Below are positions 13,426 through 33,084 of a stretch of DNA of 64,000 nt, piece after piece; within the stretch, counting starts at the first letter, position 1; the number at the start of each line of letters is the position of its first letter. The stretch lies in assembly GCF_054482525.1 (NCBI RefSeq), contig NZ_CM137006.1, one strand, 5' to 3'. The translations under genes were made by a program, and so were the position numbers. Below the pieces are notes generated by a model that worked only from the letters and a program-made list of their open reading frames with translations, was not told the DNA's origin and did not search any database.

Positions 13426-13467
13426 ATCTGGCGGCGCAGTTTGTTAAGAAGCTGCGCCGCCTGCAGA

Positions 13468-14619
13468 TTATTTGTTCTGATAATCTTTCAGGATCTGCCG
13501 ACCTGCTACGTAAATCATAATTTCGTCTGTACCGCCGCCGATACGTTCACAACGGACATCACGCCAGAAGCGGGAGACGCGCGCCTCATCGGTATAGCCC
13601 AGACCGCCCATGATTTGAATCGCATCATCAATGACTTCCATTGCGGTACGTGCGCAGTACAGTTTTGCCAGCGCCGCGCTGGTGCGCAGTGACTGATGCT
13701 GATCGGCTTGCCATGCCACTTTCAACACCATGTTGCGCATGTTGTCGATCTTAATCGCCATCAGCGCCAGTTTTTCCTGGATCATCTGGTTATGACCAAT
13801 TGGTTTACCAAAAGCGATACGTTGGTTGGCATAGCGGGCGGCATCTTCGAATGCGCATTCGGCAAAGCCGGTGCTGCGCGCGGCGTTGATCAGGCGCTCC
13901 ATCTCAAAGTTGTACATCACATTGAGGAAACCCATTCCTTCTTCGCCCACTATGTCGCTCTCTTCAACTTCCACGTTGTCGAGATAGACTTCGCAGGTGC
14001 TGAGCATATGCCAGCCGATTTTATGCAGCGGGTTAATCTTAATGCCGGGCTTACTGGAGTCGACCCACCACAGGGTGAAGGCTTTTTTGGGATCTTTCGG
14101 TTGCGGATCGCGCGCCAGCACCAGCATATACGGGTACTCTTTCGCACCGGTAATAAAGGTTTTCTGTCCATTGATGTAAACCTTGCCGTTTTTACGCGTG
14201 TAAGTGGTGGTAGCGCTGTTGTTATCTGAGCCAGCACCTGGTTCCGTCAACGCCAGGGCATAGGCGGGGTCGCCGGTTTCCAGGGTGCTTTCTGCCGTTT
14301 TACGTAGCTGCTCTGCAGAACCGAAACGGCGCATACTGTGAATACATTGACCGTTGGTGATCAAAAATGCCGGAGCACCGCATTTTGACACTTCCATCAG
14401 CGCCAGCATTTGGGTGACATAATCCGCAGGGATACCACCAAATTCTTCCGGCACGCCAAGCATGGAAATACCGTTATCCGCCAGTGCCCGCATAAACTCA
14501 CGCGGATATGTCCCGTTTTGATCGCAGGTGCGGAAATACTCTTCCGGAAAGTTAGTCGTAATCAGTTCGCGAATACTGGCCAGCAGCAGTTCTTGTTCTT
14601 CAGTTAAAGAAAAATCCAT
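13468..14619 (-). CDS. ydiO: Acyl-CoA dehydrogenase family protein YdiO, 383 aa
   Basis: Internal start MDFSLTEEQELL gives 383 aa; acyl-CoA dehydrogenase sequence. Confidence 0.88.
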   Translation of the reverse strand: MDFSLTEEQELLLASIRELITTNFPEEYFRTCDQNGTYPREFMRALADNGISMLGVPEEFGGIPADYVTQMLALMEVSKCGAPAFLITNGQCIHSMRRFGSAEQLRKTAESTLETGDPAYALALTEPGAGSDNNSATTTYTRKNGKVYINGQKTFITGAKEYPYMLVLARDPQPKDPKKAFTLWWVDSSKPGIKINPLHKIGWHMLSTCEVYLDNVEVEESDIVGEEGMGFLNVMYNFEMERLINAARSTGFAECAFEDAARYANQRIAFGKPIGHNQMIQEKLALMAIKIDNMRNMVLKVAWQADQHQSLRTSAALAKLYCARTAMEVIDDAIQIMGGLGYTDEARVSRFWRDVRCERIGGGTDEIMIYVAGRQILKDYQNK

Positions 14620-14632
14620 CATTATACTCCTG

Positions 14633-16228
14633 TTAATTAGCCGCTTCAGGCAGGACAAAACCCATCGCCGCATCGATAAATAATCTTTCGTCCATCAGTT
14701 TGAGTTCTGGCGAAATCACTGGGGTGAAATCCATTTTGTCGAGAATATCTTTTTGTAAATCGACGCCAGGAGCGATTTCGATTAAATGCAGGCCGTCTTC
14801 TTTTAGCGTGAATACGGCGCGCTCAGTGATATAACGAACATCCAGTCCTCGCTCGAGAGCGATTTTTCCGCTGAAAGTAATTTCTGGTAGTTCCCGAATA
14901 AATTTCTTCACCCGTCCTTCCTGGACGATATTTAATTTGCCGTCGGCAATTTCTGTTTTTAAACTGCCCGCAGTTAATGTGCCGCAGAAAACGATTTTCT
15001 TCGAAGTGGCACTGATATCAATAAATCCACCGGTGCCCATGATTTTACCATTGAATTTATGCACGCCGACGTTACCGTGCTGGTCGACTTCAGCAAAACT
15101 CAAATAACAAACATCCAGACCGCCACCGTGATAAAAATCAAACTGGGACGTCATATCCAGAATGGCACGGGTATTCACGTTCGCGCCAAAGGCGATCCCC
15201 TGTGAAGTAATACCGCCAATTGGGCCTGTTTCTACCGTCAGAATAAAGTCATCAGCACAACCTTCTTCCCGGGCGACCAGGCCAATGCCGTCAGCAATAC
15301 CGACGCCGACATTCCCCACTGCGCCTTTGCGCATTTCGAATAATGCACGCCGTGCAACTAATTTACGTTGGTTTAGGGGCAGGCTAAGTTTGGTGCTGTC
15401 ATCAAGGGTGAAGTCACCAGAAATAAAGCGGTTAACCGGTGCACCGCCATACAGTTGGGTTTGATCCGGATCGACTACCACAATATCCACCAGATAACCC
15501 GGAATACGGACAGATTTAGGATGCAGCGTGGCTTTCTTAACCATCTTCTGCACCTGCATCATCACAATACCGCCGTTATTGTGCACCGCCTGAGCAATAA
15601 CCAATGCGTCGAGATACATCACCTCATCTTCAAAAGTGGCGTAGCCTTCACTGTCGCAGGTGGTAGCGCGAATGAAGGCAATATCTGGCGCTATCGCTTT
15701 GTAATAGAGATATTCTTTGTTTTCAAACTCGACCAGTTTAATCAGGTCTTCTTTAGTGACTTCATTCAGTTTGCCGCCTTGCTGGCGTGGATCGACAAAT
15801 GTTCCGATACCAATATCACTAATAATACCAGGCTGGTGGGCTGCGGCGGCGCGTAAGGTTTGTGTAAGTACACCTTGTGGATAGTTATAAGCAATAATTT
15901 TATTTTGTTCTGCGAGATCAGAAATACGCGGCGATTGTCCCCAGTGCCCGCATAATGCCCATTTCACCAGACCTTCTTGCGCCAGCGGACTAATACCGCG
16001 GTCGGCGCGATCGCCAAGCCCTGTTGGACTAATAATCGATAAATTACGTGGCGTTTGAGTCTGTTTATATTTATCAGCAAGAGCAGTAATTAACGTGGTG
16101 GCTTCCAGAATACCGCCGCCAGCGCCTAACACACAAAGTGTTGCTTCGTCGGGAATATAATTCACCGCTTCCTGTGCCGACAGGACCGGCACTCGTCCAT
16201 TAATACGAGGTGGTTTTACAGGTTTCAT
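14633..16228 (-). CDS. ydiF: Acetate/short-chain acyl-CoA transferase YdiF, 531 aa
   Basis: 531-aa ORF; CoA-transferase family sequence. Confidence 0.9.
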   Translation of the reverse strand: MKPVKPPRINGRVPVLSAQEAVNYIPDEATLCVLGAGGGILEATTLITALADKYKQTQTPRNLSIISPTGLGDRADRGISPLAQEGLVKWALCGHWGQSPRISDLAEQNKIIAYNYPQGVLTQTLRAAAAHQPGIISDIGIGTFVDPRQQGGKLNEVTKEDLIKLVEFENKEYLYYKAIAPDIAFIRATTCDSEGYATFEDEVMYLDALVIAQAVHNNGGIVMMQVQKMVKKATLHPKSVRIPGYLVDIVVVDPDQTQLYGGAPVNRFISGDFTLDDSTKLSLPLNQRKLVARRALFEMRKGAVGNVGVGIADGIGLVAREEGCADDFILTVETGPIGGITSQGIAFGANVNTRAILDMTSQFDFYHGGGLDVCYLSFAEVDQHGNVGVHKFNGKIMGTGGFIDISATSKKIVFCGTLTAGSLKTEIADGKLNIVQEGRVKKFIRELPEITFSGKIALERGLDVRYITERAVFTLKEDGLHLIEIAPGVDLQKDILDKMDFTPVISPELKLMDERLFIDAAMGFVLPEAAN

Positions 16229-21200: not shown

Positions 21201-21337
21201 CGTGTAATGGCTGCATGAAATAAACAATAAAATATAAATAACATTATCAGCCTGCCGACGGCTTGAAGAGAGTCACAGTATCTTGTGCAACATTATTGGA
21301 AAGCGTGAGGGGCGAGGTAGCGAAGCGGAAAAATGTT

Positions 21338-21407
21338 AAAAAAAAGCCCATCGTGGGAGATGGGCAAAGACTACACACAGCAATTCGTTGTTTCACTCAG
21401 GGGATTT
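21338..21407. repeat. Left attachment-site direct repeat (duplicate of the rprA 3' end and terminator, 70 bp)
   Basis: Identical to 32979-33048: aaaaaaaagcccatcgtgggagatgggcaaagactacacacagcaattcgttgtttcactcaggggattt. Confidence 0.9.
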
Positions 21408-21424
21408 AAGTCATTGATTGATTT

Positions 21425-22054
21425 ATGGGTATGCGGTTTTTCGGCATAAACCAAATTAAGCAAGGCTTGAAAATGGACACACAAATTGCACACATATCGC
21501 ACACAAATAAAAAGGGGTATGTATGGCGCAAGCGTTATGAAAAACGCACGATTGAAATCATCCTACGCACCCGTGATAAATCAATTGCCATAAAAAGAGC
21601 GGCATCAATAACAATTCGCTATATGGAATTAAAATCACTTGACGTTCCATTTAAAGCAATGCTGGAAATGTTAAAAAAGTTTCGTGATGGTCTGATTACG
21701 TCACATGACATTGAGCGCTTAAGGTCGATTGCGATAGCTTCACAGGAAGCTCCACACGCCGCTGTAACCGCTTCGCCTATACAAAGTGTTGGCTATGATG
21801 TCAAAACCGCTCAGAAAGCCGCACAGGGGCATTCCCTTGGCGATGCTCAAAAAGTGTACTTTGGCGCCAACACCGAATGGAAAGAAAAAACCATCAAGGC
21901 TTATTCTGGTTGTATCGACCGCTTTATTTTATGGTGCGCTAATAAAAATATTCATACCGTGGAAGAAATAACGAAAGAGCATGTGATTTCATTTAAATCC
22001 AGCATGGATGAAGAAAAATTAGCCTCCATGACTAAATTTCGCATAATAATATGA
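21425..22054 (+). pseudogene. Tyrosine-integrase-like N-terminal fragment (core-binding/SAM-like region only, catalytic domain missing)
   Basis: 209-aa ORF; the segment KTIKAYSGCIDRFILWCANKNIHTVEEITKEHVISF resembles an integrase core-binding domain; no R..HxxR..Y catalytic region follows; sits next to the att repeat. Confidence 0.4.
21477..21509. repeat. Three tandem ~11-bp repeats (acacacaaatt / gcacacatatc / gcacacaaata), candidate integrase arm-type sites, left end
   Basis: Direct tandem repeats ~70 bp inside the left att repeat; a matching triplet lies ~70 bp inside the right repeat. Confidence 0.5.
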
Positions 22055-22362
22055 TTCGGGTTAGCATAACCAATACTTTTATTAAAGCCTATGTATGCAC
22101 CAATTTCTTTATACTTTAACTTAGTGAAATCTGAAATAATACTCAGTGGCTGCAATACGTTATGTCCATTGTGCGCCCCTTCATTAGCGCAAAATCCTGT
22201 ATTTGCAAACTGACCTTTATCACGCCAGATGAATCTATCAACGCCGCCACATACAGGACATGGTGTATGTTCATTTGGTTTAATATCAATTCCAAAATCA
22301 TTCATATGCACCAATGGATTCTTTTTAATATAATTATTCAAATCAGTAAAGAAATTAGCCAT
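21952..22362 (-). pseudogene. DNA primase zinc-ribbon domain fragment (Toprim and downstream domains absent)
   Basis: Motif HTPCPVCGGVDRFIWRD typical of primase Zn-ribbons; ORF stops soon after; its 3' end overlaps the convergent integrase fragment. Confidence 0.45.
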
Positions 22363-22681
22363 TATATTTGCTCCCGTATCGCCTTGCTGGATGCTTTGCA
22401 AAGAAATCAACGATATCTTGTTTGCGATACCAGATATAACCGTCTAATTCATGATGAATTTCTTGCGGAAATTCTTTAGGGTTAAAGCGTTTGGCGGCAT
22501 AAAACATTGGTTTAGTAACACCAGATAAAGCAATTGCATCATTGCCACACACAAGCCCTGTAAGTTGCACTTTCTGCGATTGTTCTTTTATCTGTGCCGC
22601 GATTAGCCTTTTATTCTCATTAACGTATTTTTCAATCTGTAGCTTACGCATTTTTTCGCGCATGTAATTTATATCGGTCAT
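22355..22681 (-). CDS. AlpA/Xis-like small DNA-binding protein, 108 aa
   Basis: C-terminal region FYAAKRFNPKEFPQE...YIWYRKQDIVDFF resembles the AlpA-family FPK...W..R..DI..W pattern. Confidence 0.45.
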   Translation of the reverse strand: MTDINYMREKMRKLQIEKYVNENKRLIAAQIKEQSQKVQLTGLVCGNDAIALSGVTKPMFYAAKRFNPKEFPQEIHHELDGYIWYRKQDIVDFFAKHPARRYGSKYNG

Positions 22682-22697
22682 TTTAGTATCCTATATA

Positions 22698-24200
22698 TTA
22701 AGTCATTATCTGTGCTGGTGGGGTAATGATATGAATTATCCCTCGATTATTCATAATGAATCTACATCGTTCAAGCCCTGTAATTGCTCGCTTTATATTA
22801 TTTGGCTGCATTTTATACTCAGTTTTTAATGCCTTCGTTAAATCGGATTCATGTACACAGCCATCAGCACTAAATTCCATTAACTGTATTATCATTTCTA
22901 AAACTCGTTCTTGTGCTGGTGCATTTTTCTTTTTTAACTCGCTCATATATGAGTCGTAAGCGAGAGTATTATTACGCGCAGCATTTTGAGTAAAATTAAC
23001 TCCTGCTTCATATGATTCTGCATTTACAGCGTTTTGCATTAATTGCTTATTTTGCTGTTGCGTTGTTAGTGGTTGCCGCTGTTGCGTGTGCATTTGCGCA
23101 TAATCATTTATCGGTGATTGCTGCATGATAAATGGTTCATCATTAGCTTGTTTGCGTTCTATTTTTCCTGCTGCAATTACTGGAGTTGGCCTATCAATAA
23201 ATACCAACGTCTTAGTATTGGCGTTTACCTGATAACCTTTTGCATTTTCTTCGGGATAATCGCATAATTCATTATTAATATCATGTAATTCACAGACGGT
23301 AATTCCGTTATCCGCTGTGCATAAATCAAATTGCATCACTGGTAATTTTGCAGCGCTACGGTTTTTTTCGATAGTGAGTGATACGGATAACCCAAAATCA
23401 TTACCCTGCATTTGCTCTAGTTTAATGACTGTATCAGAGTCATTTTTAAGGGTAATGGCTCCTTTCATACCTTTAGCCGCATCTTTGCCGCCGTGGTGAA
23501 CCATCAAGACAAAAGAATTTGTTTCTACTGCAATTCTTTTCAAAATCGAAATCAGCTTACGCATTGCAATAGCATCATTTTCATCAGGATTTTCCATATC
23601 CAAAATGGTTTTTCCATCAATGCTTTTTTTTGTGTAGTATGCCAAAAATGAAGAAAGCGTATCAAAACAAATGATGCCGCCTTTGTTATTGGTGATTTTA
23701 TTTACATCATTTATTATTCGATTCTGTATTTCTTTATCAAATAAGTTTATTTGTGGTGACAAGATGTGCATTCTGTCATTTTTAACGCCACTATTAAACT
23801 TATTAGACCACGCTGTATTTCGATCTTTGATTTCAACGCCTGTTTCACCATCAAAATAAAAAGCATGGCATTCTTTAGCAACTCGCAAACCAGCCCACGG
23901 TTTACCCTGTGCAACTCTGTTTAAAAGAGATAATGCCGCAAATGATTTGCCTGTGTTGGATTCACCATAAAGGAAGCCGACCTGTTTTCGGTTAAATAGA
24001 TTTTCAATTACAGGGCGTAACCGCTTTTCTGATTGCAATTGAATTTCAGCTAATTCAATTGCACACAATTCATCATTTATACCATCATATTCAGACCACT
24101 CACCGTAGTTGGCGGGTGCGTAATAATCAATCGCGAGAGTGTAATAATAATCAGGAATAGCAGACCAATCAATAAACATTCCTGTGCACATATCATTCAC
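22698..24200 (-). CDS. RecA-like (RepA/AAA_25-type) replication ATPase, 500 aa
   Basis: Walker A GESNTGKS near residue 80; hydrophobic strand plus HHGGKD Walker-B-like region; Q/N-rich linker and C-terminal domain; flanked by AlpA-like genes and iterons. Confidence 0.55.
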   Translation of the reverse strand: MNDMCTGMFIDWSAIPDYYYTLAIDYYAPANYGEWSEYDGINDELCAIELAEIQLQSEKRLRPVIENLFNRKQVGFLYGESNTGKSFAALSLLNRVAQGKPWAGLRVAKECHAFYFDGETGVEIKDRNTAWSNKFNSGVKNDRMHILSPQINLFDKEIQNRIINDVNKITNNKGGIICFDTLSSFLAYYTKKSIDGKTILDMENPDENDAIAMRKLISILKRIAVETNSFVLMVHHGGKDAAKGMKGAITLKNDSDTVIKLEQMQGNDFGLSVSLTIEKNRSAAKLPVMQFDLCTADNGITVCELHDINNELCDYPEENAKGYQVNANTKTLVFIDRPTPVIAAGKIERKQANDEPFIMQQSPINDYAQMHTQQRQPLTTQQQNKQLMQNAVNAESYEAGVNFTQNAARNNTLAYDSYMSELKKKNAPAQERVLEMIIQLMEFSADGCVHESDLTKALKTEYKMQPNNIKRAITGLERCRFIMNNRGIIHIITPPAQIMT

Positions 24201-24247
24201 CGTAATTTGGGTATTTAATTAAGAAAAATTCAATTACTTCTTCTTTT

Positions 24248-24400
24248 TTATATAGATGCTTTGTTTTTTTTGTTTTTATCGCAAGTAACTAAATGCTCTT
24301 TTGGAAATTCTTTAGGGTTAAAACGTTTAGCCATATAAAAAGCGGTTGAGCCAATTTTAGCCAAAAGTTGTGCTTCACGAGGTGTAATTAAGTCGCTCAT
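24248..24400 (-). pseudogene. Second AlpA-like fragment (50 codons), partial duplicate of the 22355-22681 gene
   Basis: Translation MSDLITPREAQLLAKIGSTAFYMAKRFNPKEFPKEH... shares the FY-AKRFNPKEFP motif with the downstream AlpA-like gene; weak RBS; not in the ORF track (<60 aa). Confidence 0.3.
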
Positions 24401-24750
24401 GTAGGGTATCTCTTAGATGTATTCTGAGTGCGGTCATGGTAGGCGAGGGGAGGAATAGCGGCAAGCATTACCGGATATAGTAAGCACTACCAGCTAAAGT
24501 CTAACTAACTGTCAACAGATTGAGGCTAAAACCACTGTATGTAAATTCAATTTTAAAAATTAAAAATCATTCTGGCTTAACTAATTATGCTCAATTTAAA
24601 TTGAATCTGATAATAAAAAGAATCAATAAAATGGATTTAGTGATTTTTAGTTGGACGAAATCGTTCATTTTATGTGCATTGCTCGCTGGTGATAATTCAA
24701 CCAATCCATTCAACCTATTCGAATGGGTGGTGAATTTTTGACCGAATTAA

Positions 24751-24920
24751 ATTCACCTGAATATTCACCGAATGATTCACCTGAATCATTCAGCCCTTCA
24801 TTCACCACGAAACCCAGGCGCGGCGGGGCTTACAGGCCGATTCATTCACCTGAATATTCACCTGAATATTCACCTGAATTATTCAACCAAAAATTCACCT
24901 TCATATTCACTCATTCACCT
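24751..24920. repeat. Iteron array: two clusters of three 12-bp tandem repeats (ATTCACCTGAAT) plus degenerate copies
   Basis: Units at 24751, 24763, 24775 and at 24844, 24856, 24868 with further TTCACC copies; lies upstream of the Rep ATPase operon. Confidence 0.6.
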
Positions 24921-24957
24921 CTCTATAAATAAGCATTGGAATGCTTTTTATAGAGGT
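24921..24957. other. Long near-perfect inverted repeat (ctctataaataagcatt gg aatgctttttatagag), hairpin or operator
   Basis: About 16-bp arms with a 2-nt loop, T-run on one side; lies between the iterons and the ner-like gene. Confidence 0.4.
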
Positions 24958-25236
24958 TGATGAATGAAGGTCGTTCAAGTGAATGAACTGTGAGTTGGGT
25001 AAACCCCTAGGGGTTGGGGGTGTTGTCGATTTGTGGTAAATTCCTTCTGCCAGCGTGAAAAAGGCGCTGGTGGGGATTTGCAGCCCCAAACAAACAAAAC
25101 CATTGGCAAGGAATTGCCGATGCGCGTGCGCACGTCAGTTATGGCGGTCACGGCGAGGGAGTCGAAAGGCTCGCCAGTTTTGTTTGTTTGCTGGTACTGC
25201 AAACCTCGTCGTGATCGTCACCACGGGGATGCATGT

Positions 25237-25488
25237 ATGCAGGAAACAGACTGGCACAAAGCGGATATTCTTGCCTCTTTAAAGAAAAAGAAAATCAGCA
25301 TGGCGGGATTATCCCGTGAACATGGTTTATCAAGTAGCACGTTGCTAAATGCACTTAGTAGAGAATGGCCTAGAGGCGAATTAATTATTGCTAATGCAAT
25401 TGGTGTGTCACCTCAAGAAATATGGCCTTCTAGGTATTTTGAAAAAGATGGCTCTCCAAAAAATCGTGTGATTCGTAAACCTGTTTAA
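25237..25488 (+). CDS. Ner/Nlp (SfsB)-family HTH DNA-binding regulator, ~83 aa
   Basis: MQETDWHKADILASLKKKKISMAGLSREHGLSSSTLLNALSREWPRGELIIANAIGVSPQEIWPSRY closely resembles Ner/Nlp; I prefer the internal ATG at 25237 over the 151-aa ORF start. Confidence 0.6.
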   Translation: MQETDWHKADILASLKKKKISMAGLSREHGLSSSTLLNALSREWPRGELIIANAIGVSPQEIWPSRYFEKDGSPKNRVIRKPV

Positions 25489-25705
25489 ATAAGTCAATGC
25501 GTCTCTGATTAAAAGGGGCGCATTTTTGTTTTTACTGACTTGTTGCAATGTGGGATATGTTGCGCACGTGTGTGCGATAGTTGTTAATTGTTTTTTGTAC
25601 TAGTTAACAAATACGAATTTTCTGAGGGTGCTATTTTGGGTTTTAGCTGCGGCTTCGCCTTGCTGCCCTTCGGGCTGGTGGTGCAAGAAGAATGTTTGAA
25701 AACTT

Positions 25706-25751
25706 CCTTTTCTTTGCTTCACCAGCCCCGTAGGGGCGTGAGCGTAGCGAA
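25706..25751. repeat. 46-bp direct repeat, copy 1 (ccttttctttgcttcaccagccccgtaggggcgtgagcgtagcgaa)
   Basis: Identical to 29912-29957; contains a gcccc-gta-ggggc hairpin; ~100 bp upstream of the 383-aa gene. Confidence 0.85.
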
Positions 25752-25849
25752 CCTAATCACTTTGATTTTGACACATATCGGTTCTATCATTTTCAGGAAA
25801 ATCATCATAGAATTATATAAAACATACGATTTTTAAGGTGAATTTTTAA

Positions 25850-27001
25850 ATGCACGAGAAAGCGCAAACAAAAATAAAAGATACTATTAGAGAAATACTA
25901 ATCACTCCAGCAATCGCTTTTACTGGTCGTGCAGGTCATTTTGATTTTTCATTATATGAAGTTTTAGCAAATGAGCTTAACAAAAGAAAGATAAAGTTTA
26001 AAATTGATAAATTATCATGTTGGATTATTTTTGATGGCGCAAAAAAACATTACTTTCAAGATAAATCAATTACTGACGCACAAGCGATAAATGATTTTGT
26101 GGATACGTTATGTAGTATTTACTGTGAAACACCTATGGATTACTCCATCGATTTTCACTTTAGAAATTTAAAAATCGATATCAACCCGATTGATTATGAG
26201 TTTGTTTCAATTAGAGCGGGTGAGGATATTGGTATTGGTTTGTTCGCTGAAAAAGAAAAGTATGCGATTGCGAGCATTAAAAAGAATGGCTATCTTTCAG
26301 GTGGTTATCCTAGCTCATTTATAAAATCGATTTTGCAAGATTTGAAAATCTTCATTTTTTTGATTAAAAGCATTAATTTGATTAAGACAGGAAAAACCAA
26401 TTTAGCATCCACGTTATTTCAATCGATGTCCGGTCATGCTGACACAATTAAGATTGATTGCGTTAATGTTAAATATCCTTGGATGAATAGCAGTGTCCAT
26501 ATTTCAGAGTCGGTAGGGAAATTTTTACACAACTTTATCTTCAATTATGAATTTGAAGAAGGCTACATTATAGAAAAAATAGATCATTCGCTTCAGCTAA
26601 TGAATGCAATAGTAAAAGATGAGTCAAAAGAAGCCTTGCGTATCAAGGCTGCAATTGATTGGTTGGTGCAATCTGAAATCACTGATGATGAAACCATGTC
26701 TTTTATTCAAATTTGCATGGGGCTTGAATCAATTTTTGGTGATGATGATTATGAGGGTGGCCTAACAAACATACTATCTGATAGATGCGCCTACTTAATA
26801 GGGAATAAAATTAAAGAGAGGAGATTTATAAAGGACACATTTAAAAAAATATATCAAGTTAGGTCAAAGATAGTGCATGGCGTAAGAAATCATTTATCAG
26901 ATGATGAATTATATTTTAGGCATTTAGCATATTCATATTTAGAGCGTTCTATTCTAAAAGAAATTCAAAATTTAGACCTGCAATCCCATCAGGCGACGTG
27001 A
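25850..27001 (+). CDS. Hypothetical protein with C-terminal HEPN-like R-x4-H-G motif, 383 aa
   Basis: AGGTGA RBS 8 nt upstream; C-terminal ...KKIYQVRSKIVHGVRNH matches the R-x4-6-H signature of HEPN RNases; strongly AT-rich. Confidence 0.4.
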   Translation: MHEKAQTKIKDTIREILITPAIAFTGRAGHFDFSLYEVLANELNKRKIKFKIDKLSCWIIFDGAKKHYFQDKSITDAQAINDFVDTLCSIYCETPMDYSIDFHFRNLKIDINPIDYEFVSIRAGEDIGIGLFAEKEKYAIASIKKNGYLSGGYPSSFIKSILQDLKIFIFLIKSINLIKTGKTNLASTLFQSMSGHADTIKIDCVNVKYPWMNSSVHISESVGKFLHNFIFNYEFEEGYIIEKIDHSLQLMNAIVKDESKEALRIKAAIDWLVQSEITDDETMSFIQICMGLESIFGDDDYEGGLTNILSDRCAYLIGNKIKERRFIKDTFKKIYQVRSKIVHGVRNHLSDDELYFRHLAYSYLERSILKEIQNLDLQSHQAT

Positions 27002-27236
27002 AGCTTGTGCGCTTCATTATGGGGCTAGCCGCCATCAGGCAAGGCGATTGCATGTCTTTGCGCTTCGTCGCCTCCTGATGCGTTCTGTGAAGATGTCGAT
27101 CATTTAGTGAGCGCGGCGGATGTTGCTGATGGATAGTGTGGATGCAACTGAACCATACCGCGAAAAGTGGCAGGATTGCGCCGGAATCGTACCGCTAGCA
27201 GGTGTTGAGTGTAAGAAGTAGTGATTGGGTGAAATG

Positions 27237-27275
27237 AAGATAGAAGGCCGCATAGAGGCATACAACTAGCCTTAT
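27237..27275 (-). terminator. Hairpin downstream of the lipoprotein gene (candidate terminator)
   Basis: ccgcata...tatgcgg stem followed, on the minus strand, by a T-rich tract. Confidence 0.35.
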
Positions 27276-27288
27276 GCGGTTGGCTGGT

Positions 27289-27732
27289 TCAGCACTGGTA
27301 AAAGTTGGCGAGGTGTGGAATATGGCTGGTGGTGGTTTCGAAAGCCTTGAGGCGTCCATTTTTATCTTTTTTCAAGTAGAGCATTTTTAGTGCTGGTGGA
27401 AATACTGAATCCATAATTCCATAAACTCCCACATTTTCGTTTTCTTCTTTAAGCATTCCCCAATATTGATAACCATTTAATGCGCTATCATCAATGCCCG
27501 TTCCAACGCGCTTAATGTGGGCAAGATATCGGCCTTTTATCGTAAAGCTAAATGATTCATCACGTTCATTTGTGCAAGTGTAAAATCCATCATCGCTTTC
27601 ATTTATAACTTCAGATGCTTCACGATTTAATGAGTACTTGTCTAAGTTGTTTATGATGTCACTTCGCTGTGCGCATCCAGTCAAATTTAGAATGGTAAAA
27701 ATTAGTACAGAAGATGCAAGATATTTGTTCAT
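27289..27732 (-). CDS. Predicted lipoprotein, ~147 aa
   Basis: N-terminus MNKYLASSVLIFTILNLTGC carries a signal peptide with lipobox LTGC; internal ATG at 27732 preferred. Confidence 0.55.
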   Translation of the reverse strand: MNKYLASSVLIFTILNLTGCAQRSDIINNLDKYSLNREASEVINESDDGFYTCTNERDESFSFTIKGRYLAHIKRVGTGIDDSALNGYQYWGMLKEENENVGVYGIMDSVFPPALKMLYLKKDKNGRLKAFETTTSHIPHLANFYQC

Positions 27733-27818
27733 TTTGATTATCCATATGAAAAGCAAGGTACTTAGATTAAATTACCCTGCTTAAGCAGTAATTAGCGGTT
27801 CCGTTAATAGAGGGTAGA

Positions 27819-28178
27819 TTATTTGTTAATTTGTTTTTTAGTGTGTGAGATAAAATTTCTAAGTAAATCTTTTTCAATTACAATTTCACATTTTAGGTTT
27901 TGGCTATCGACCGCATCAATTCTATCAAACCAAAACATTAATTCCTGGCTTGCATCGCATTTACGTTTGAATTTAATTGCCCTGCCGAATTTTTCACTTA
28001 AAGAATCATCATCACATAAAAAATAAATTTTATTATTAATGGTGATTTGAATTAAATATGTCTTCCTCGTTAGGTAATCTAACCTTTCGTTAGCTTTCAG
28101 TAAGTTAGCTTCAGCTTGTTTGATGCGTATAAGAGCATCCTCTTTGCTTAAAGGGGATGTATTGACAGACTTGATCAT
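27819..28178 (-). CDS. Hypothetical protein, 119 aa, upstream partner of the lipoprotein
   Basis: AAGGA RBS 8 nt upstream of the ATG; co-oriented with the lipoprotein gene, 86-bp gap. Confidence 0.5.
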   Translation of the reverse strand: MIKSVNTSPLSKEDALIRIKQAEANLLKANERLDYLTRKTYLIQITINNKIYFLCDDDSLSEKFGRAIKFKRKCDASQELMFWFDRIDAVDSQNLKCEIVIEKDLLRNFISHTKKQINK

Positions 28179-28287
28179 AATTTAATCCTTTGGTTAAGAT
28201 TCATCAAAAATATGCCATAAATAGCCTTGAAGGTTGTGTGGAATACATATTATGATAGCTTCATCTAATCAGCAAGGGGAATAATAG

Positions 28288-28443
28288 ATGCCTTCTAAAC
28301 GTGTTATATGCTCACTTGATGAGCAAGAGTTAGATATTCTCGAAAAATATAAATTACATTATAAAAATATGCATGGCGTAAAATTAAACAGAACGGCAAT
28401 TATCAAAATGTTGATTAGTCGTCTATCAAAAGAAATTCAATAA
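28288..28443 (+). CDS. Ribbon-helix-helix (Arc/CopG-like) small DNA-binding protein, 51 aa
   Basis: MPSKRVICSLDEQELDILEKYKLHYKNMHGVKLNRTAIIKMLISRLSKEIQ shows a beta-strand/helix/helix pattern; GGGGA RBS; divergent from the 27819-28178 operon; below ORF-track length cutoff. Confidence 0.45.
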   Translation: MPSKRVICSLDEQELDILEKYKLHYKNMHGVKLNRTAIIKMLISRLSKEIQ

Positions 28444-28495
28444 TAATTCTAATTACCAATTAATTTAAACTTCACATAATTAAAGAGGCAACTCT

Positions 28496-28810
28496 ATGCA
28501 CACTCTTTTTTCTAAATTTAAAAACAGGAAAATTAAAATGTATCAACCACGTTATAAAAGCAGAATGATTGACGATAATGAATATAATCAGGTGCTTCAA
28601 TCGAGAATGCAAAATCTTTTAAATCAATATAATAATGAGGTTTCAAACTTAACCCGCATTGGTGTTACAAATTTGGGTTTCGGCCGATGGGATAATGGAG
28701 AGAGCAAAATCAATAACCACGTTAATAAAGTAAGTGAGACTTTGGAAAAGATGCAATCTACGCAAGCCTTGATTGATGCTCTTGCAAATGAAATTACACA
28801 AACTAATTAA
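28496..28810 (+). CDS. Hypothetical protein, 104 aa
   Basis: AAGAGG RBS 8 nt upstream; no recognisable motif. Confidence 0.45.
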   Translation: MHTLFSKFKNRKIKMYQPRYKSRMIDDNEYNQVLQSRMQNLLNQYNNEVSNLTRIGVTNLGFGRWDNGESKINNHVNKVSETLEKMQSTQALIDALANEITQTN

Positions 28811-28894
28811 TCGAATGGGGGATGCTTTAAATGGTAATCGCAATCATGGTTGTAATGTTTTGGGCTTTCCTGATTCTTAAAGAGGAAATGAAAT

Positions 28895-29179
28895 ATGGTT
28901 AAATTTGGAGTGTTTTACCATCATGCATGGGGTGATGGTAAAAAGGAAATCCCGCCACCTGATTTAAATTACATCCGAACCGATCCACATAAAAATAATG
29001 AAATTGCTTTAGATGTTTTTGATTCAAGAATGGACGCACAAAAACGCGCTGATTTACTAAATTCACGCATGGCAAAAAATCAAACTGGTCAGCATTATGT
29101 TGCGCCAACAACGCAAGAAACCAAAACGGCTCAAAAGCGCTTTAAGTTTCCTTGTACTAGCATTTATGGGTGGAAATGA
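28895..29179 (+). CDS. Hypothetical protein, 94 aa (paralog family A)
   Basis: AGAGGA RBS; N-terminus MVKFGVFYHHAWGDG is similar to the next gene's N-terminus. Confidence 0.45.
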   Translation: MVKFGVFYHHAWGDGKKEIPPPDLNYIRTDPHKNNEIALDVFDSRMDAQKRADLLNSRMAKNQTGQHYVAPTTQETKTAQKRFKFPCTSIYGWK

Positions 29180-29181
29180 AA

Positions 29182-29556
29182 ATGAGTAAACAATTCGGTG
29201 TTTTCTTTTGGCGAAAAGGTGACGCTATTACCGATATCCCGTCAGATAAAAATGTTGCAAATCGCGGAGTAAAGCCTAAGCGCATTTTTTCAGATTATAT
29301 TGATGGAATGCGATATAAAGATAAAATGAATGCAACAATTCCAGCGGCGCAAAAAGGTAAATATGAATATGTATTAGCGGAAATTGTTGAACCAGACCCG
29401 AACAATACAAAGGTGTTGTTTAAATCTGGAAATTTAACAGAAGCATTAAGGGCGAAGCGACAAACAACCGAACAAATCAACCGAAATAAAATTGATGCAA
29501 TGATTAAAGAAGCCGCACACGATTACCTTTACACTATTACAGGAATGGAAAAATGA
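29182..29556 (+). CDS. Hypothetical protein, ~124 aa (paralog family A)
   Basis: N-terminus MSKQFGVFFWRKGDA parallels the upstream gene; GGTGGA RBS; start at 29182 preferred over 29170. Confidence 0.45.
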   Translation: MSKQFGVFFWRKGDAITDIPSDKNVANRGVKPKRIFSDYIDGMRYKDKMNATIPAAQKGKYEYVLAEIVEPDPNNTKVLFKSGNLTEALRAKRQTTEQINRNKIDAMIKEAAHDYLYTITGMEK

Positions 29557-29852
29557 TTATTGACGAGCGATTTATTAAATGGTCAATGGTGCTGGTGGAG
29601 GCCGGAAAGCCATCACCCAGCCTCGCGGGGCTTTATAAAGGAAACACTAAAGGATTAATCTTTTATAAAACACGTGAATTGGCATCAAATGCAGCCACTA
29701 AACGGAATGAGCAATTAGCAGGAACTAAATCAACCAGCCGATTTAAAATCATTAAATTGCATGACGCAGAAGCACAACAGAAACATGATTTTCAGTTAAA
29801 ACAGGAACGCCAGCGCCGCGATGCACGCCATATGCGCCGATTTGGTTTCTAA
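29553..29852 (+). CDS. Hypothetical basic protein, 99 aa
   Basis: 4-bp ATGA overlap with the upstream gene suggests translational coupling; Lys/Arg-rich C-terminus. Confidence 0.4.
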   Translation: MIIDERFIKWSMVLVEAGKPSPSLAGLYKGNTKGLIFYKTRELASNAATKRNEQLAGTKSTSRFKIIKLHDAEAQQKHDFQLKQERQRRDARHMRRFGF

Positions 29853-29911
29853 ATATAACTCAATAACTCAACCAATGGTGATGTTAAAGAATAAGGTGGC
29901 CTTAAATTTCA

Positions 29912-29957
29912 CCTTTTCTTTGCTTCACCAGCCCCGTAGGGGCGTGAGCGTAGCGAA
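29912..29957. repeat. 46-bp direct repeat, copy 2
   Basis: Identical to 25706-25751; 37 bp upstream of the tape-measure-like gene. Confidence 0.85.
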
Positions 29958-29993
29958 ATAAGTAACATTAATATCAAATCAGAGGTAAATAAA

Positions 29994-31982
29994 ATGGCAG
30001 GTGAAAATGCTCAATTGGGCTTTTCCGTCGATACATCGGAAGTGGAAACAGCATCAAAAAGGCTTAATGAATTAGCTAAATCAGCGCAAGGGGCGGCTGA
30101 TTCGGCTGGCAAATTATCAGATTCATTTGAGGAAAGTATGAAGGGTGTTAATTCATCAATTACTTCCAATCATCAGGCTATGCGCGAATTAACGGTAATG
30201 ATGCACGAAGCAATGTCTGGTAATTGGTCGCGCTTGCGTGGTTCTGCAATGATTATGGGCGGCGCATTGGGATTTGGTGGATTAACTAGCGGTGCGGTAG
30301 TTGGTGGAATTACGCTTGTTTCGGAAGGCATTGAATCGCTAATTGAAGGAATGCGAGAAGCTCAAAAAGCAGAAACTGAATTAAATAATTCTGCTGTAAT
30401 TACAGCAGATGTAAGCCTTTTAAATAGTGATTATGTTGATTCACTTACTATTGGTTATGAGAAATTAGGCTATTCAGCAACACAAGCAAAAGGCATGATT
30501 GCAGCGTTAAGTAATGCGGGTATGTTTGGTGATGAATTTAGTGTTGCAGGTAAACAAATTGCCGCACTATCTAAAGCGTTAGGCGGTAATTCAGACGAAC
30601 AAAAAAAATTAGCTGGTCAATTTGGTGGCTTGTATTCTGACCCGCTAGGACACGTTAACGAATTTTTCCAAGTAACAAACGGATGGATTACCAAAACCGA
30701 ACAAAACCGAATTAATGCGGCTGAACAATCGCATAATTCAGCACAAGCTGAAATGGCTATGCAAGAAGCGCTATTAGATGTTTATAAGCGTCAAACCGAT
30801 ATGCTACAGCTTAAAGCCTATTTGGAAACTAACGCCGCTACATATTCAGCCTTTCAGACGCGCGAACAATTCGGCAGCGCATGGGGTAAGGGCGAAAAAG
30901 AAAAGGCAGACGCATTTATCAAGCAATATGACGAGCGCCAGCAATCATTTAATCAGGGCGTTGAAAAGCTAAAAGGAAGCATTCACGAAACAGGACGCCA
31001 GATAAGGGAAAATGTAGAAGAATTTAATAAAGGAATGCATCCCCATAAAGTGCATACACACCACGGATTAACAGCAATTGAGAAAGCAGCTAAACAATTG
31101 GTGACCTACCAAACCCAAATTAAACAGGCTGGTTTGCAATTTGACCAGCAAATTAATTCAATTGGTGATTCAGTAAATAATGCGTGGAGTAATAAATTAT
31201 ACTCTTATTCAATGTCTTCTGACCAGAATGATTTTGCAAACCGAATTGAACAAATCAATGAACAATTCGACCGTATGCGCGAAAATGTAGACCGTTTGGC
31301 GCTGCAACATCATAAATCAATTGGTTCAAAAGAATATGTTGAAATGTTCCAAAAAATCGAATTAGGGCGCAAAAACGTATTGGCTGAAAACGTTGCTGGA
31401 TTTAATGAAATGGAGTCATTGCAGCATTCAGCGCTGGCGGGAATGGATGAGGGATGGATTAAATACCAGAAGCAGGTTAATGATGTTGCAAGCCAATCAG
31501 AGAAAGTTTTTGATACGGCTGTTGAGGGAATGACAAATTCATTAACTGATTTCTTTACAACTGGTGAGGCTGGTTGGACTAATTTTGTAAAATCAATCGC
31601 AACAATCACTGAAAAATACATGGTTCAAGATTGGATTGTTGAGCCGCTAGCAGGATTAGTAAAAGGGGGGATTAGCTCGCTATTTTCATCAAATCCATTG
31701 AGTTCAACGGCTAACACTTTTGCCGTTCCCGATATTCCAAAATTGGGCGCAACTCATTTAGGAGGCGGTCTAGGTTCGACCGCACCAGTTATCAATATCA
31801 CCATTAATGACAATGGCAACAAAGGCGGCGTTGATAGCAATGTTAGCGGCACAACAGGGCAAGTACAAAAAATGGGGGCGGCGCTAGATAAATTCCTGCA
31901 AAACTATATCAAAGAGCAAAACGTAAAATCCAACCGTCAGGGCGGGTTAAACAAAACAATGGGGAACTGGTCGACAAGATAA
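29994..31982 (+). CDS. Phage tail tape-measure protein homolog (lambda gpH-like), 662 aa, orphan
   Basis: Glycine-rich hydrophobic segment MIMGGALGFGGLTSGAVVGGITLV near the N-terminus, long helical middle, C-terminal FDTAVEGMTNSLTDFFTTGEAGWTNFVKSI and ...VINITINDNG matching, from memory, the lambda H C-terminal region; AGAGGT RBS. Confidence 0.6.
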   Translation: MAGENAQLGFSVDTSEVETASKRLNELAKSAQGAADSAGKLSDSFEESMKGVNSSITSNHQAMRELTVMMHEAMSGNWSRLRGSAMIMGGALGFGGLTSGAVVGGITLVSEGIESLIEGMREAQKAETELNNSAVITADVSLLNSDYVDSLTIGYEKLGYSATQAKGMIAALSNAGMFGDEFSVAGKQIAALSKALGGNSDEQKKLAGQFGGLYSDPLGHVNEFFQVTNGWITKTEQNRINAAEQSHNSAQAEMAMQEALLDVYKRQTDMLQLKAYLETNAATYSAFQTREQFGSAWGKGEKEKADAFIKQYDERQQSFNQGVEKLKGSIHETGRQIRENVEEFNKGMHPHKVHTHHGLTAIEKAAKQLVTYQTQIKQAGLQFDQQINSIGDSVNNAWSNKLYSYSMSSDQNDFANRIEQINEQFDRMRENVDRLALQHHKSIGSKEYVEMFQKIELGRKNVLAENVAGFNEMESLQHSALAGMDEGWIKYQKQVNDVASQSEKVFDTAVEGMTNSLTDFFTTGEAGWTNFVKSIATITEKYMVQDWIVEPLAGLVKGGISSLFSSNPLSSTANTFAVPDIPKLGATHLGGGLGSTAPVINITINDNGNKGGVDSNVSGTTGQVQKMGAALDKFLQNYIKEQNVKSNRQGGLNKTMGNWSTR

Positions 31983-32043
31983 TATTATGTTGCTTAGTAA
32001 GTCTAAACTTTACGCCCTAATTAGGGCGTTTTATTTAAAAAAG

Positions 32044-32661
32044 TTAATTTGCTGTATTTTCTCTCATCTTTCTAAGTTCTGGCAATACTTTCTTATAGAA
32101 TTTCGTAGTGGAATCAGCGCAGTAGTTTTGCAGATACTTATAGTTTTCTTCAAATTTAGGGAGATCTTTAGCTACCGTCAATTGCTTTGGTAAAGTTCCG
32201 GTAGCATCATCGGTTATATCAAATGTTATTGAATTATGTTTTCGATCTTCATTAACTTTTTTTAAAGTGGCAACAATAGGGCTTTTATCCATAGAACCAT
32301 CTATTAGTTGGCGAACTTGAAACTTCCTTGGGATTATAAAATTAATTACTGACGGAGGTTCACTATTTAATGTTATATTCCAAGTTATTGGCATAGCATC
32401 ACATAAACCTTCAGATATTATTTCACCATCAATTGAACCATCAGAATTGGCGATAAATTGTATTATAACAAGTGGTTGATCTTTATTTAAGCCAAGATCT
32501 CCACTATTTATTATATATTCAGCGTCTGTCGACCATTTGCCTGTTAGAAATTCTTTTTGATAAAGTGCTTCATTTATTTCACCTCTATATGGTAAATATA
32601 GACCTATAGCACCAATTGCAACACCTAATACAGTGCATATTGTTGTTATTCGTCCACTCAT
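32044..32661 (-). CDS. Membrane-anchored hypothetical protein, 205 aa
   Basis: N-terminal hydrophobic helix ITTICTVLGVAIGAIGLYLPY; AT-rich; at the island edge. Confidence 0.45.
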   Translation of the reverse strand: MSGRITTICTVLGVAIGAIGLYLPYRGEINEALYQKEFLTGKWSTDAEYIINSGDLGLNKDQPLVIIQFIANSDGSIDGEIISEGLCDAMPITWNITLNSEPPSVINFIIPRKFQVRQLIDGSMDKSPIVATLKKVNEDRKHNSITFDITDDATGTLPKQLTVAKDLPKFEENYKYLQNYCADSTTKFYKKVLPELRKMRENTAN

Positions 32662-32875
32662 ATCACACTCGTTATCTTATCCTTGTTGTAGTTAAGCATT
32701 TTATTTTATTTTTTTATTGTGAAAATGGCTAGTTTTAGTTGGGTCTTGCGCTGAATCTAACGAGTGCTTACCCCGTGAAGTGATTTATGATTAAAGTTCG
32801 TTTTGTTTTTGGTTAAAAAATGAACATGTGAGTGCTTTGGAAAATTTCTGTAACACTCACCTGATTTACGCTGGT

Positions 32876-32909
32876 AGCACACAAATGGTACACAAACGGC
32901 ACACAGGTA
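32876..32909. repeat. Three tandem ~11-bp repeats (agcacacaaatgg / tacacaaacgg / cacacaggtaa), candidate integrase arm-type sites, right end
   Basis: Mirrors the left-end triplet; same orientation; ~70 bp inside the right att repeat. Confidence 0.5.
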
Positions 32910-32978
32910 ATCGCATACCTTTAATGACCTAATTTCTTCAAGCCCCTGCATTGCTGCGTTTGTCGTGATTTTCGGCAT

Positions 32979-33048
32979 AAAAAAAAGCCCATCGTGGGAG
33001 ATGGGCAAAGACTACACACAGCAATTCGTTGTTTCACTCAGGGGATTT
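32979..33048. repeat. Right attachment-site direct repeat (3' 70 nt of intact rprA)
   Basis: Identical to 21338-21407. Confidence 0.9.
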
Positions 33049-33084
33049 CCATGCTTATAAATCAATATGTTGATTTATAACCGT
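32979..33084 (-). ncRNA. rprA: Small regulatory RNA RprA (activator of rpoS translation)
   Basis: Minus-strand sequence ACGGTTATAAATCAACATATTGATTTATAAGCATGGAAATCCCCTGAGTGAAACAACGAATTGCTGTGTGTAGTCTTTGCCCATCTCCCACGATGGGCTTTTTTTT matches RprA from memory, including the intrinsic terminator; lies between ydiK and ydiL. Confidence 0.85.

Follow-up and report, generated by a model that had tools for sequence, protein, structure and literature searches.

An open reading frame of 205 codons, situated on the minus strand next to the small RNA gene rprA in the 64,000-nucleotide stretch of DNA analysed here (the window), is a real gene under purifying selection, and it constitutes a self-contained cargo cassette in a slot which varies between islands. 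The protein encoded is most probably a type II inner-membrane protein whose soluble domain, predicted to fold as a calycin-type (lipocalin/avidin-like) barrel, would face the periplasm. The explanation which in our opinion best combines the data, and to which a probability of roughly 0.4 can be given, is that this tethered periplasmic barrel would be a mobile moron acting in entry exclusion.

A conserved gene and its variable slot in the rprA island

The gene begins with an ATG start and is annotated in RefSeq as encoding the hypothetical protein WP_000016731.1; the coordinates given for it in the earlier note are reproduced exactly by the ORF list and by RefSeq. Around ydiL-rprA-ydiK, the chromosome of E. 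coli PCN033 matches the window with 100% identity. When 5.8 billion proteins were searched, about 30 homologous clusters (90% identity) were retrieved, which are 57-97% identical to the target, all from Enterobacterales and all consisting of unnamed proteins, and a profile re-search of the same 5.8 billion proteins added zero further family members. HMMER, run exhaustively over 1.84 billion representatives, gave only 31 family representatives at 50% identity, the distant members in this set being 23-49% identical to the target and 205-301 aa long, with the same layout. The pairwise dN/dS between the target and five homologues was 0.07-0.2, the synonymous sites of these pairs being saturated or nearly so, and the probability that 205 codons remain open by chance is 6e-7 at the local composition. 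Moreover, the DNA homology across unrelated contexts begins exactly at the ATG (window position 32661) and ends near the stop codon. As this homology is confined to the ORF, the ORF itself is the mobile unit.

A spurious or decaying ORF without function could be suspected from the annotation, which is hypothetical only, from the AT-rich composition, from a promoter scan not above chance and a weak ribosome binding site, and from the state of the island around the gene, which is degraded and has a truncated integrase. This reading is effectively refuted already by the conservation and selection data, and we consider its probability negligible: to the open-frame chance and the dN/dS values can be added that the full-length frame is kept in more than 30 clusters and in many hosts and that the fold prediction is confident. 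The conserved housekeeping paralog which the earlier note had considered is excluded as well, since the family occurs in 34 of the 5426 E. coli genomes (3 chromosomal copies and 31 on IncX1-type plasmids) and in 4 of 100,044 species representatives. With a profile made from the close alignment, two IMG/VR contigs were also found. The AT-richness described previously is confirmed, the gene having a GC content of 32.5%, while the remainder of the island has 37.7% and the flanking chromosome 51.7%. The family maintains 33-39% GC in every host, even within an Acidovorax locus of 64.5% GC.

The island which harbours the gene extends from about 21408 to 32977 (11.6 kb) and is bordered by a perfect repeat, attL and attR (Table 1); Rfam reports a second RprA-like match at attL. 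It contains fragments of an integrase and of a primase (the zinc ribbon), an AAA_25 ATPase, an HTH_35 gene with a C4-type antisense RNA upstream, a gene with a HEPN annotation, several small ORFs and a gene for a 662-aa protein with a lambda tape-measure C-terminal domain. Capsid, terminase, lysis and other tail genes are all absent from the island, which for this reason looks like a satellite-like integrative element. The earlier description of an edge-located membrane protein on a prophage holds consequently for the membrane and for the edge of a mobile element, and not for the prophage. Compared with an intact relative in strain FREC5, the island has lost 1.87 kb, in which the catalytic portion of the integrase, the primase N-terminus and a GIY-YIG gene were encoded. 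This type of island is present in 5 of the 5426 complete E. coli genomes, three of which carry the target. The repeats called arm-type in the earlier note do exist near both ends, those close to attL being CACACAAAT-type repeats at 21478-21510 which are similar to the ACACAAAYGGY repeats of the right end, and an arm-type role for them is plausible.

As had been stated before, the gene is at the island edge next to rprA and is oriented inwards. Its start is 316 nt downstream of rprA, which was identified by Rfam and is on the same strand; both being on the minus strand, the gene reads inwards from the attR edge. The slot of the cassette is flanked by the tape-measure-like gene on one side and by the attR end of the island on the other. 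FREC5 is collinear with the window up to 31983 (15925 in L011) and resumes at 32840 (16001 in L011), with 75 unrelated bp in place of the cassette. In strain S10 the slot is taken by a gene in the same orientation encoding a 381-aa PIN_12-domain protein (Pfam 1.2e-35), and in Phytobacter massiliensis an island carries the cassette at the identical site.

Concerning expression, the gene runs against the direction of the neighbouring operons, and the hairpin between the two convergent genes is terminator-like on the plus strand and only weakly so for the target (tail TAAAGTTT). Promoter-like hexamers (TTTTCA-16-TAAAAT and TAGCCA-17-TAAAAT) are present on the minus strand at 32698-32731, 40-70 nt upstream of the ATG, and the Shine-Dalgarno sequence is a weak GAG. 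The promoter region proposed previously (32662-32875) is thus only in part what it was taken for: up to 32839 it is the upstream DNA of the cassette, and from 32840 onward it belongs to the conserved island end. The hexamers are within it, yet the promoter scan gave 6 sites against 5.4 +/- 2.4 in shuffled sequence, with no excess. Read-through from the Rcs-dependent rprA promoter is conceivable, since rprA is co-directional with the gene and upstream of it.

Table 1. Positions in the window of the gene, its predicted protein segments, the cassette and the island ends
Feature	Position	Strand	Basis
attL, 71-bp perfect direct repeat of the attR core	21337-21407	.	perfect repeat
Accessory cassette, 856 bp, 32.4% GC (gene, upstream region and terminator hairpin)	31984..32839	.	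BLAST against FREC5
GC-rich hairpin ACGCCCTAATTAGGGCGT between the convergent tape-measure-like gene and the target	32012..32029	.	terminator scan
CDS, 205 aa (TM anchor, predicted periplasmic lipocalin/avidin-like barrel, C-terminal helix)	32044..32661	-	ORF, homologues, AlphaFold
Codons 170-204, predicted long C-terminal helix	32050..32154	-	AlphaFold models
Invariant C181, presumed disulfide partner of C87	32119-32121	-	alignment of 25 diverse members
Codons 40-169, predicted eight-stranded beta-barrel domain	32155..32544	-	AlphaFold models
Invariant C87	32401-32403	-	alignment of 25 diverse members
G41-x-W43, first barrel strand (predicted)	32533-32541	-	AlphaFold and alignment
Codons 24-39, predicted helical stalk from membrane to barrel	32545..32592	-	both AlphaFold models helical to about 39
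Codons 5-23, single TM helix ITTICTVLGVAIGAIGLYL (predicted)	32593..32649	-	hydropathy peak, kept in the family
Cassette-specific upstream region, 178 bp	32662..32839	-	not conserved in other contexts; homology starts at the ATG
Conserved right island end, common to FREC5 and S10, with tandem arm-type-like repeats inside	32840..32977	.	BLAST
Arm-type-like tandem repeats ACACAAATGGT/ACACAAACGGC, ACACAAAYGGY	32879-32900		sequence repeats
rprA sRNA gene	32977..33084	-	Rfam RF00034, 118.8 bits; RefSeq annotation
attR core, 3' part of rprA	32978..33048	.	71-bp perfect repeat; empty-site genomes align from 32978 on

Predicted fold and membrane topology

The single N-terminal transmembrane (TM) helix and soluble part of about 180 aa described earlier agree with what was found, namely a TM helix at residues 5-23 (hydropathy maximum 2.07, Kyte-Doolittle 19-residue mean) followed by 182 residues. 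One TM helix was counted in every member of the family but one. Structure prediction, which the earlier note had proposed, was performed with AlphaFold2 in two runs, one with an alignment of 29 close homologues and the other with an alignment of 25 diverse members. It gave a confident barrel model, with mean pLDDT values of 83.6 and 89.5 and pTM values of 0.74 and 0.78, respectively. The secondary structure agrees in both runs and consists of an N-terminal helix (residue 2-3 to 39), eight main beta-strands (between 41 and 165) and a C-terminal helix (170 to 204). When the model was compared with the PDB using Foldseek, Blc, siderocalin and retinol-binding protein were at the top, with weak E-values near 1e-2, and avidins were also among the fold matches.

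Only four columns are invariant among the 25 diverse members (G79, C87, P91 and C181), and G41, W43, S44, T93, S100, R112 and P158 are conserved in at least 90% of them. The first strand (E41-44) is opened by G41-K-W43. In lipocalins the G-x-W motif of SCR1 opens the first strand, strand A. In the models C87 is placed in a short helix following strand 3 and C181 in the C-terminal helix. A C87-C181 disulfide joining the barrel to this helix is probable, judging from the invariance of both residues, and the placement of the two cysteines resembles that in lipocalins, where a disulfide ties the C-terminal segment to the barrel.

The likeness to Blc and other lipocalins therefore comprises a predicted eight-stranded antiparallel up-and-down barrel with a C-terminal helix and the G-x-W in strand A. 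However, the target has no Pfam lipocalin match and the other lipocalin signature regions are unrecognisable in it. Moreover, Blc is an outer-membrane lipoprotein encoded by a chromosomal core gene, whereas the target would have an uncleaved TM anchor in the inner membrane and is mobile cargo. From avidin and streptavidin it differs by the absence of sequence similarity and by the addition of the TM anchor and of a 35-residue C-terminal helix.

Regarding topology, the tail that precedes the TM helix in the target is MSGR and the 15 residues after the helix are net negative. The distant members have N-terminal tails with 5-6 K/R and almost without acidic residues, and one of them presents a charged N-terminal extension of 87 residues ahead of the TM helix. 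According to the positive-inside rule, the K/R-rich tails point to an N-in/C-out signal-anchor, and an oxidising compartment would agree with the presence of two invariant cysteines in a domain that is otherwise poor in this residue. The topology check suggested earlier thus yields one TM helix by hydropathy and a probable N-in/C-out orientation from charge and cysteines, the positive-inside rule and the cysteine invariance being the whole basis of both the periplasmic orientation and the disulfide.

In the close homologues a cleavable signal peptide may exist, with cleavage at A18-I19-G20 / L21. The uncleaved anchor is favoured by the hydrophobic stretch of 19 residues, the continuous predicted helix and the long N-terminal extensions of relatives. 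A lipoprotein was also considered and rejected, as the lipobox [LVI][ASTVI][GAS]C does not occur at C9: the residue before the invariant C9 is I, L, F or A and merely 8 residues precede it. Within the TM helix of the close homologues C9 is invariant and G13 nearly invariant. A small-xxx-small motif formed by G13/G17, with a small residue conserved at position 17, is kept in this close set, and together with C9 it hints at self-association.

The scans of the target against Pfam, PHROGs, PADLOC and NCBIfam returned chance-level matches alone, namely DUF5769 (E=0.069), SppA (E=0.062) and phrog_25905 (E=0.1). The last, with its function unassigned in PHROGs, is the sole PHROGs match, and none was found at E<0.1. 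In PADLOC-DB, with the Cap15 models included, 0 families matched the target at E<=10, and to known abortive-infection families and superinfection-exclusion families such as T4 Imm/Sp, P22 SieA/SieB, HK97 gp15, phi80 Cor, T5 Llp and P1 Sim no sequence relation was detected in PHROGs and PADLOC. The Pfam scan of the 25 diverse members showed no recurring family and no match to lipocalin, Lipocalin_2, avidin, YceI or MliC (lipocalins at E<=1). Similarly, the family profile hit nothing among the PDB sequences at E<=10, Foldseek found nothing at E<=0.001 among the BFVD viral structures (the best being a TM-anchored 'CcmE' with a poor TM-score), and no homologue of the target was obtained by tblastn in 50,697 deposited phage genomes. 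In the literature nothing relevant was found on the accessions of the target and its homologue, on lipocalin superinfection exclusion or on lipocalin-like prophage defence. Both protein accessions and the strain and genome accession of PCN033 are absent from the supplements of Rousset et al. 2022 (PMC9122126). The family is thus without a Pfam entry, a characterised member or literature found and, as far as sequence comparison goes, the target is a member of no described exclusion, abortive-infection, lipocalin, avidin or Cap15 family.

Cap15, a CBASS effector (PDB 7n34), is a structural match, and an abortive effector of this kind was weighed, in which TM oligomers would permeabilise the inner membrane once a cytoplasmic barrel has sensed infection, so that the cell dies. 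This is very improbable. The match is weaker than the generic avidin matches, and Cap15 has two TM helices and a cytoplasmic barrel whereas the target has one TM helix and a barrel predicted to be periplasmic, as favoured by the positive-inside rule and the two invariant cysteines. Furthermore, the target lacks a CD-NTase partner and a PADLOC match, Cap15 models included, and no cyclase or signal generator is near the gene in about 8 contexts.

Contexts of the family

Homologues are carried by IncX1 plasmids of E. coli, Salmonella and Klebsiella in 36 PLSDB records, among the known carriers being the 24-kb IncX1 plasmid of ATCC 25922 (WP_000016733.1, 70% identical). In these plasmids the homologue is followed by a 169-aa TM protein and by a 633-aa ATPase which matches the Old, AriA and GajA models of PADLOC. 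A microcin-C-type cluster is situated a few kb from the homologue and is absent from all other contexts. On an IncFII plasmid of Pantoea the homologue is 2-5 kb from a PDC-S15 FRG protein, a restriction endonuclease and an Abi gene.

In an island of Limnobaculum allomyrinae the order of genes is AlpA, Rep, DUF927 primase, a 551-aa protein, GajA, GajB, the homologue, a 143-aa protein and the integrase, with the Gabija components GajA (2.9e-273) and GajB (2.7e-229) directly upstream of the homologue. Islands of Salmonella with integrase, AlpA and DUF927 primase have the homologue as the last gene, at the edge distal to the integrase and convergent on the island genes, and the cargo beside it differs from island to island. 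In a Buttiauxella prophage and a related IMG/VR contig the homologue is placed between a large serine recombinase and an endolysin. In a P2-like IMG/VR prophage it is found on the opposite strand between baseplate V and tail-completion S/R, which is the AT-rich 'orf30' interval of P2. Finally, two chromosomal homologues have no clear element around them, one being downstream of rpoD-mug and the other in Acidovorax. Defence genes are adjacent in about 3 of 8 contexts, a proportion that is anecdotal and not a statistic. The 169-aa and 633-aa neighbours of IncX1 and the tape-measure-like gene were tried as obligate partners and rejected, as their co-occurrence with the family is absent in the other contexts.

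The cargo of the old/tin/fun region of P2 and of the P4 hotspot (PMC9122126) offers a parallel, since it also consists of single genes or small cassettes, AT-rich and interchangeable, in slots that are fixed in place and variable in content, and the family has been found both in a slot of a P2-like prophage and beside Gabija near an integrase. It differs in that the family is outside the PADLOC systems and in that the S-V interval and the attR edge of the rprA island were not analysed in PMC9122126.

These neighbourhoods also bear on the idea that the protein serves the cycle of its own element, through lysis, helper exploitation, transfer, an envelope partnership with the tape measure or plasmid entry exclusion. 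The gene adjoins and converges with the tape-measure-like gene in the window and in Phytobacter, it has an endolysin neighbour in Buttiauxella, and on the IncX1 plasmids it is part of a conserved block resembling backbone. Nevertheless, the FREC5 and S10 islands possess the tape-measure-like gene without the target, and outside the window and Phytobacter the family occurs without that gene. It moreover appears always to be a transcription unit of its own, usually opposite to the late genes, and no element type is common to all contexts, the neighbours being different in each. A role of this kind is hence very improbable.

Possible entry exclusion or ligand binding, and known systems

The mechanism which we propose would be as follows. 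The lipocalin/avidin-like barrel of eight strands would be tethered in the periplasm through the one TM helix and the short stalk that follows it, with the C87-C181 disulfide joining barrel and C-terminal helix. The gene, which would be transcribed independently as a 'moron', travels in variable cargo slots of unrelated mobile elements, namely the satellite-like rprA island, prophages of the P2-like and siphovirus-like types, islands with integrase and primase genes, and plasmids of the IncX1 and IncFII groups. When expressed by the resident element, the tethered barrel could bind a component of the periplasm or inner membrane on which genome entry depends, either an ejected phage protein (tape measure or tail-tip lysin) or a host entry factor. 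Such binding would exclude incoming phages or other elements and in this way protect both the host and the carrier element.

An exclusion factor is the best fit because of the predicted envelope location, the single gene and a probable expression independent of late genes, and phage and satellite hotspots have been described as reservoirs of antiviral genes (PMC9122126). A function in superinfection exclusion can still be assigned only tentatively, the phenotype being deduced from topology and neighbourhood alone. Several observations go against exclusion, among them the lack of similarity to known exclusion and abortive-infection families, the lack of a homologue in deposited phage genomes, and the promoter motifs and Shine-Dalgarno sequence described above. 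The calycin fold classically binds small hydrophobic ligands and would as readily suit a role apart from phages. The identity of 63-97% across Enterobacterales genera is unlike the rapid diversification often seen in phage arms races, and the Acidovorax member is in no obvious mobile-element or defence context.

The main alternative is a ligand-binding periplasmic lipocalin, which would sequester a lipid or isoprenoid intermediate, an antimicrobial, a siderophore, a bacteriocin or a microcin. It would confer an envelope-homeostasis, resistance or immunity trait apart from phage entry, as fitness cargo of plasmids and islands. The fold matches are indeed ligand-binding barrels (Blc, siderocalin, RBP and avidins), and the GxW motif and the presumed disulfide of the C-terminal helix are lipocalin-like. 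Strong conservation and purifying selection are what is expected for a fixed ligand, and the gene is commonest on IncX1 plasmids, where a microcin-C-type cluster is nearby. On the other hand, this cluster is missing from every context other than IncX1, none of the 25 members matches the lipocalin, avidin, YceI or MliC families of Pfam, the invariant residues look structural with no pocket signature, and moron slots with Gabija or OLD-like neighbours are more typical of anti-phage cargo. We regard this alternative as unlikely.

Returning to entry exclusion, the closest known arrangement is that of gp15 of phage HK97, a small protein which is anchored in the membrane at its N-terminus, has its remainder outside the cytoplasm and acts at the DNA-entry step in the envelope. 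The target resembles it in the anchor, in the predicted extracytoplasmic remainder and in being a putatively independently transcribed moron of a mobile element. Sequence similarity, however, is absent (PHROGs, none at E<0.1), and the likeness covers layout and context. T4 Sp and HK97 gp15 would be functional analogues if the target excludes phages. As cited in PMC11364771, gp15 is a prophage moron and a superinfection-exclusion protein (Cumby et al. 2012). The tape-measure-like neighbour of the target also prompted a comparison with Tai. According to the paper on tail assembly interference, in which the word 'transmembrane' is never used, phage DNA still enters the cells expressing Tai, which means that Tai acts at tail assembly and not at entry.

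A membrane-anchored moron at the edge of a mobile element is a familiar arrangement, and the combination of an inner-membrane anchor with a predicted calycin barrel is a variant of it which has not been described. That the family is a new single-gene envelope defence, in which a periplasmic lipocalin tethered to the inner membrane blocks the entry of phage or plasmid genomes, is a rather doubtful proposal. The family is easy to test, as a 70%-identical homologue is available in the standard strain ATCC 25922. If the protein proves to bind a small molecule instead, it would be a bacterial lipocalin of an unusual kind, anchored in the membrane and disseminated by plasmids. If exclusion is true, it would represent a structurally new single-gene envelope defence and the first calycin barrel in superinfection exclusion, and it would add three cargo slots beyond those of earlier hotspot surveys, namely the attR edge of the rprA island, the P2-like S-V interval and the block of IncX1 plasmids with the OLD-like ATPase.

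Nature and mobility of the island at rprA

The earlier note had likened the island at rprA to prophages. This was not borne out, as genes for capsid, terminase and lysis are absent from window positions 21408-32977, and the island is a satellite-like integrative element rather than a prophage. No tail gene other than the one encoding the 662-aa tape-measure-like protein was found in the island, and this gene is kept in every island variant (E. coli FREC5, E. coli S10 and Phytobacter). The gene content also includes an AAA_25 ATPase, primase fragments, an HTH_35 gene and small ORFs. Islands of this type are present at rprA in only five of 5426 complete E. coli genomes.

Since the att core perfectly repeats the 3' end of rprA, integration takes place within the sRNA gene, which the island restores as it inserts. 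When the FREC5 island is taken as reference, 1.87 kb are deleted at window position 22036/22037, and the catalytic part of the integrase, the GIY-YIG nuclease gene and the N-terminus of the primase have been lost with them. Given this deletion, the island is probably immobile in the window strain.

Elsewhere in the window, the ydiF CoA-transferase gene is interrupted by IS1B (about 15244-15941, as annotated by RefSeq in PCN033, whose sequence is identical here).

Features of the rprA island and of related loci (window coordinates unless a locus is named)
Feature	Position	Strand	Evidence or remark
Satellite-like integrative element, 11.6 kb	21408-32977
Second RprA-like match at attL	21336-21456	-	Rfam, 81 bits
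att core, 71-bp perfect direct repeat of rprA 3' end	21337-21407 / 32978-33048
C4-type antisense RNA	25137-25225	+	Rfam RF01695, 65.8 bits
383-aa ORF, "HEPN domain-containing"	25850-27001	+	RefSeq annotation
662-aa protein with lambda tape-measure C-terminal domain	29994-31982	+	Pfam 8e-15; PHROG tape-measure 3.5e-21
Perfect 9-nt inverted repeat CACTCGTTA/TAACGAGTG	32666-32674 / 32758-32766		flanks promoter-like region on both sides
Imperfect inverted repeat	32825-32863		spans cassette junction (32839/32840)
381-aa PIN_12-domain protein, E. coli S10	L023 (S10 locus) 12568-13713		Pfam 1.2e-35
169-aa protein and 633-aa AAA_15 ATPase	L002 (IncX1 plasmid locus) 10704-13220		downstream of plasmid homologue

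Alternative cargo and defence candidates

In S10 the slot that holds the target gene in the window is filled by the PIN_12 gene, which is an alternative cargo of this slot; its product gave no PADLOC match. The "HEPN" ORF, also conserved in FREC5 and S10, had no match in Pfam, PHROG or PADLOC and could be a further defence candidate. The C4-type RNA, of the P1/P7 immunity type, lies immediately 5' of the annotated HTH_35 gene, which suggests that immunity in the island is switched by an antisense RNA.

On the IncX1 plasmids the two genes downstream of the target homologue form a block conserved in all four loci examined. The 169-aa protein has one hydrophobic helix. The ATPase matched the PADLOC models Old (4.7e-19), AriA (4.8e-19, over the full model length) and GajA, and its gene could be a defence gene of a fused PARIS/OLD-like type. 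Contig SFGN01000043.1, which bears the label "Lachnospiraceae bacterium MAG", shares 99% identity with the IncX1 plasmid locus across 8.9 kb and most likely comes from an enterobacterial plasmid that was mis-binned.

Cassette junction and expression of the target gene

The junction-spanning repeat and the 9-nt repeat could represent an operator or recombination scars. In addition, rprA (32977-33084) is placed upstream of the target gene (32044-32661) in the same direction; transcription from the rprA promoter, which is Rcs-regulated, could run through the terminator and in this way link expression of the target gene to envelope stress.
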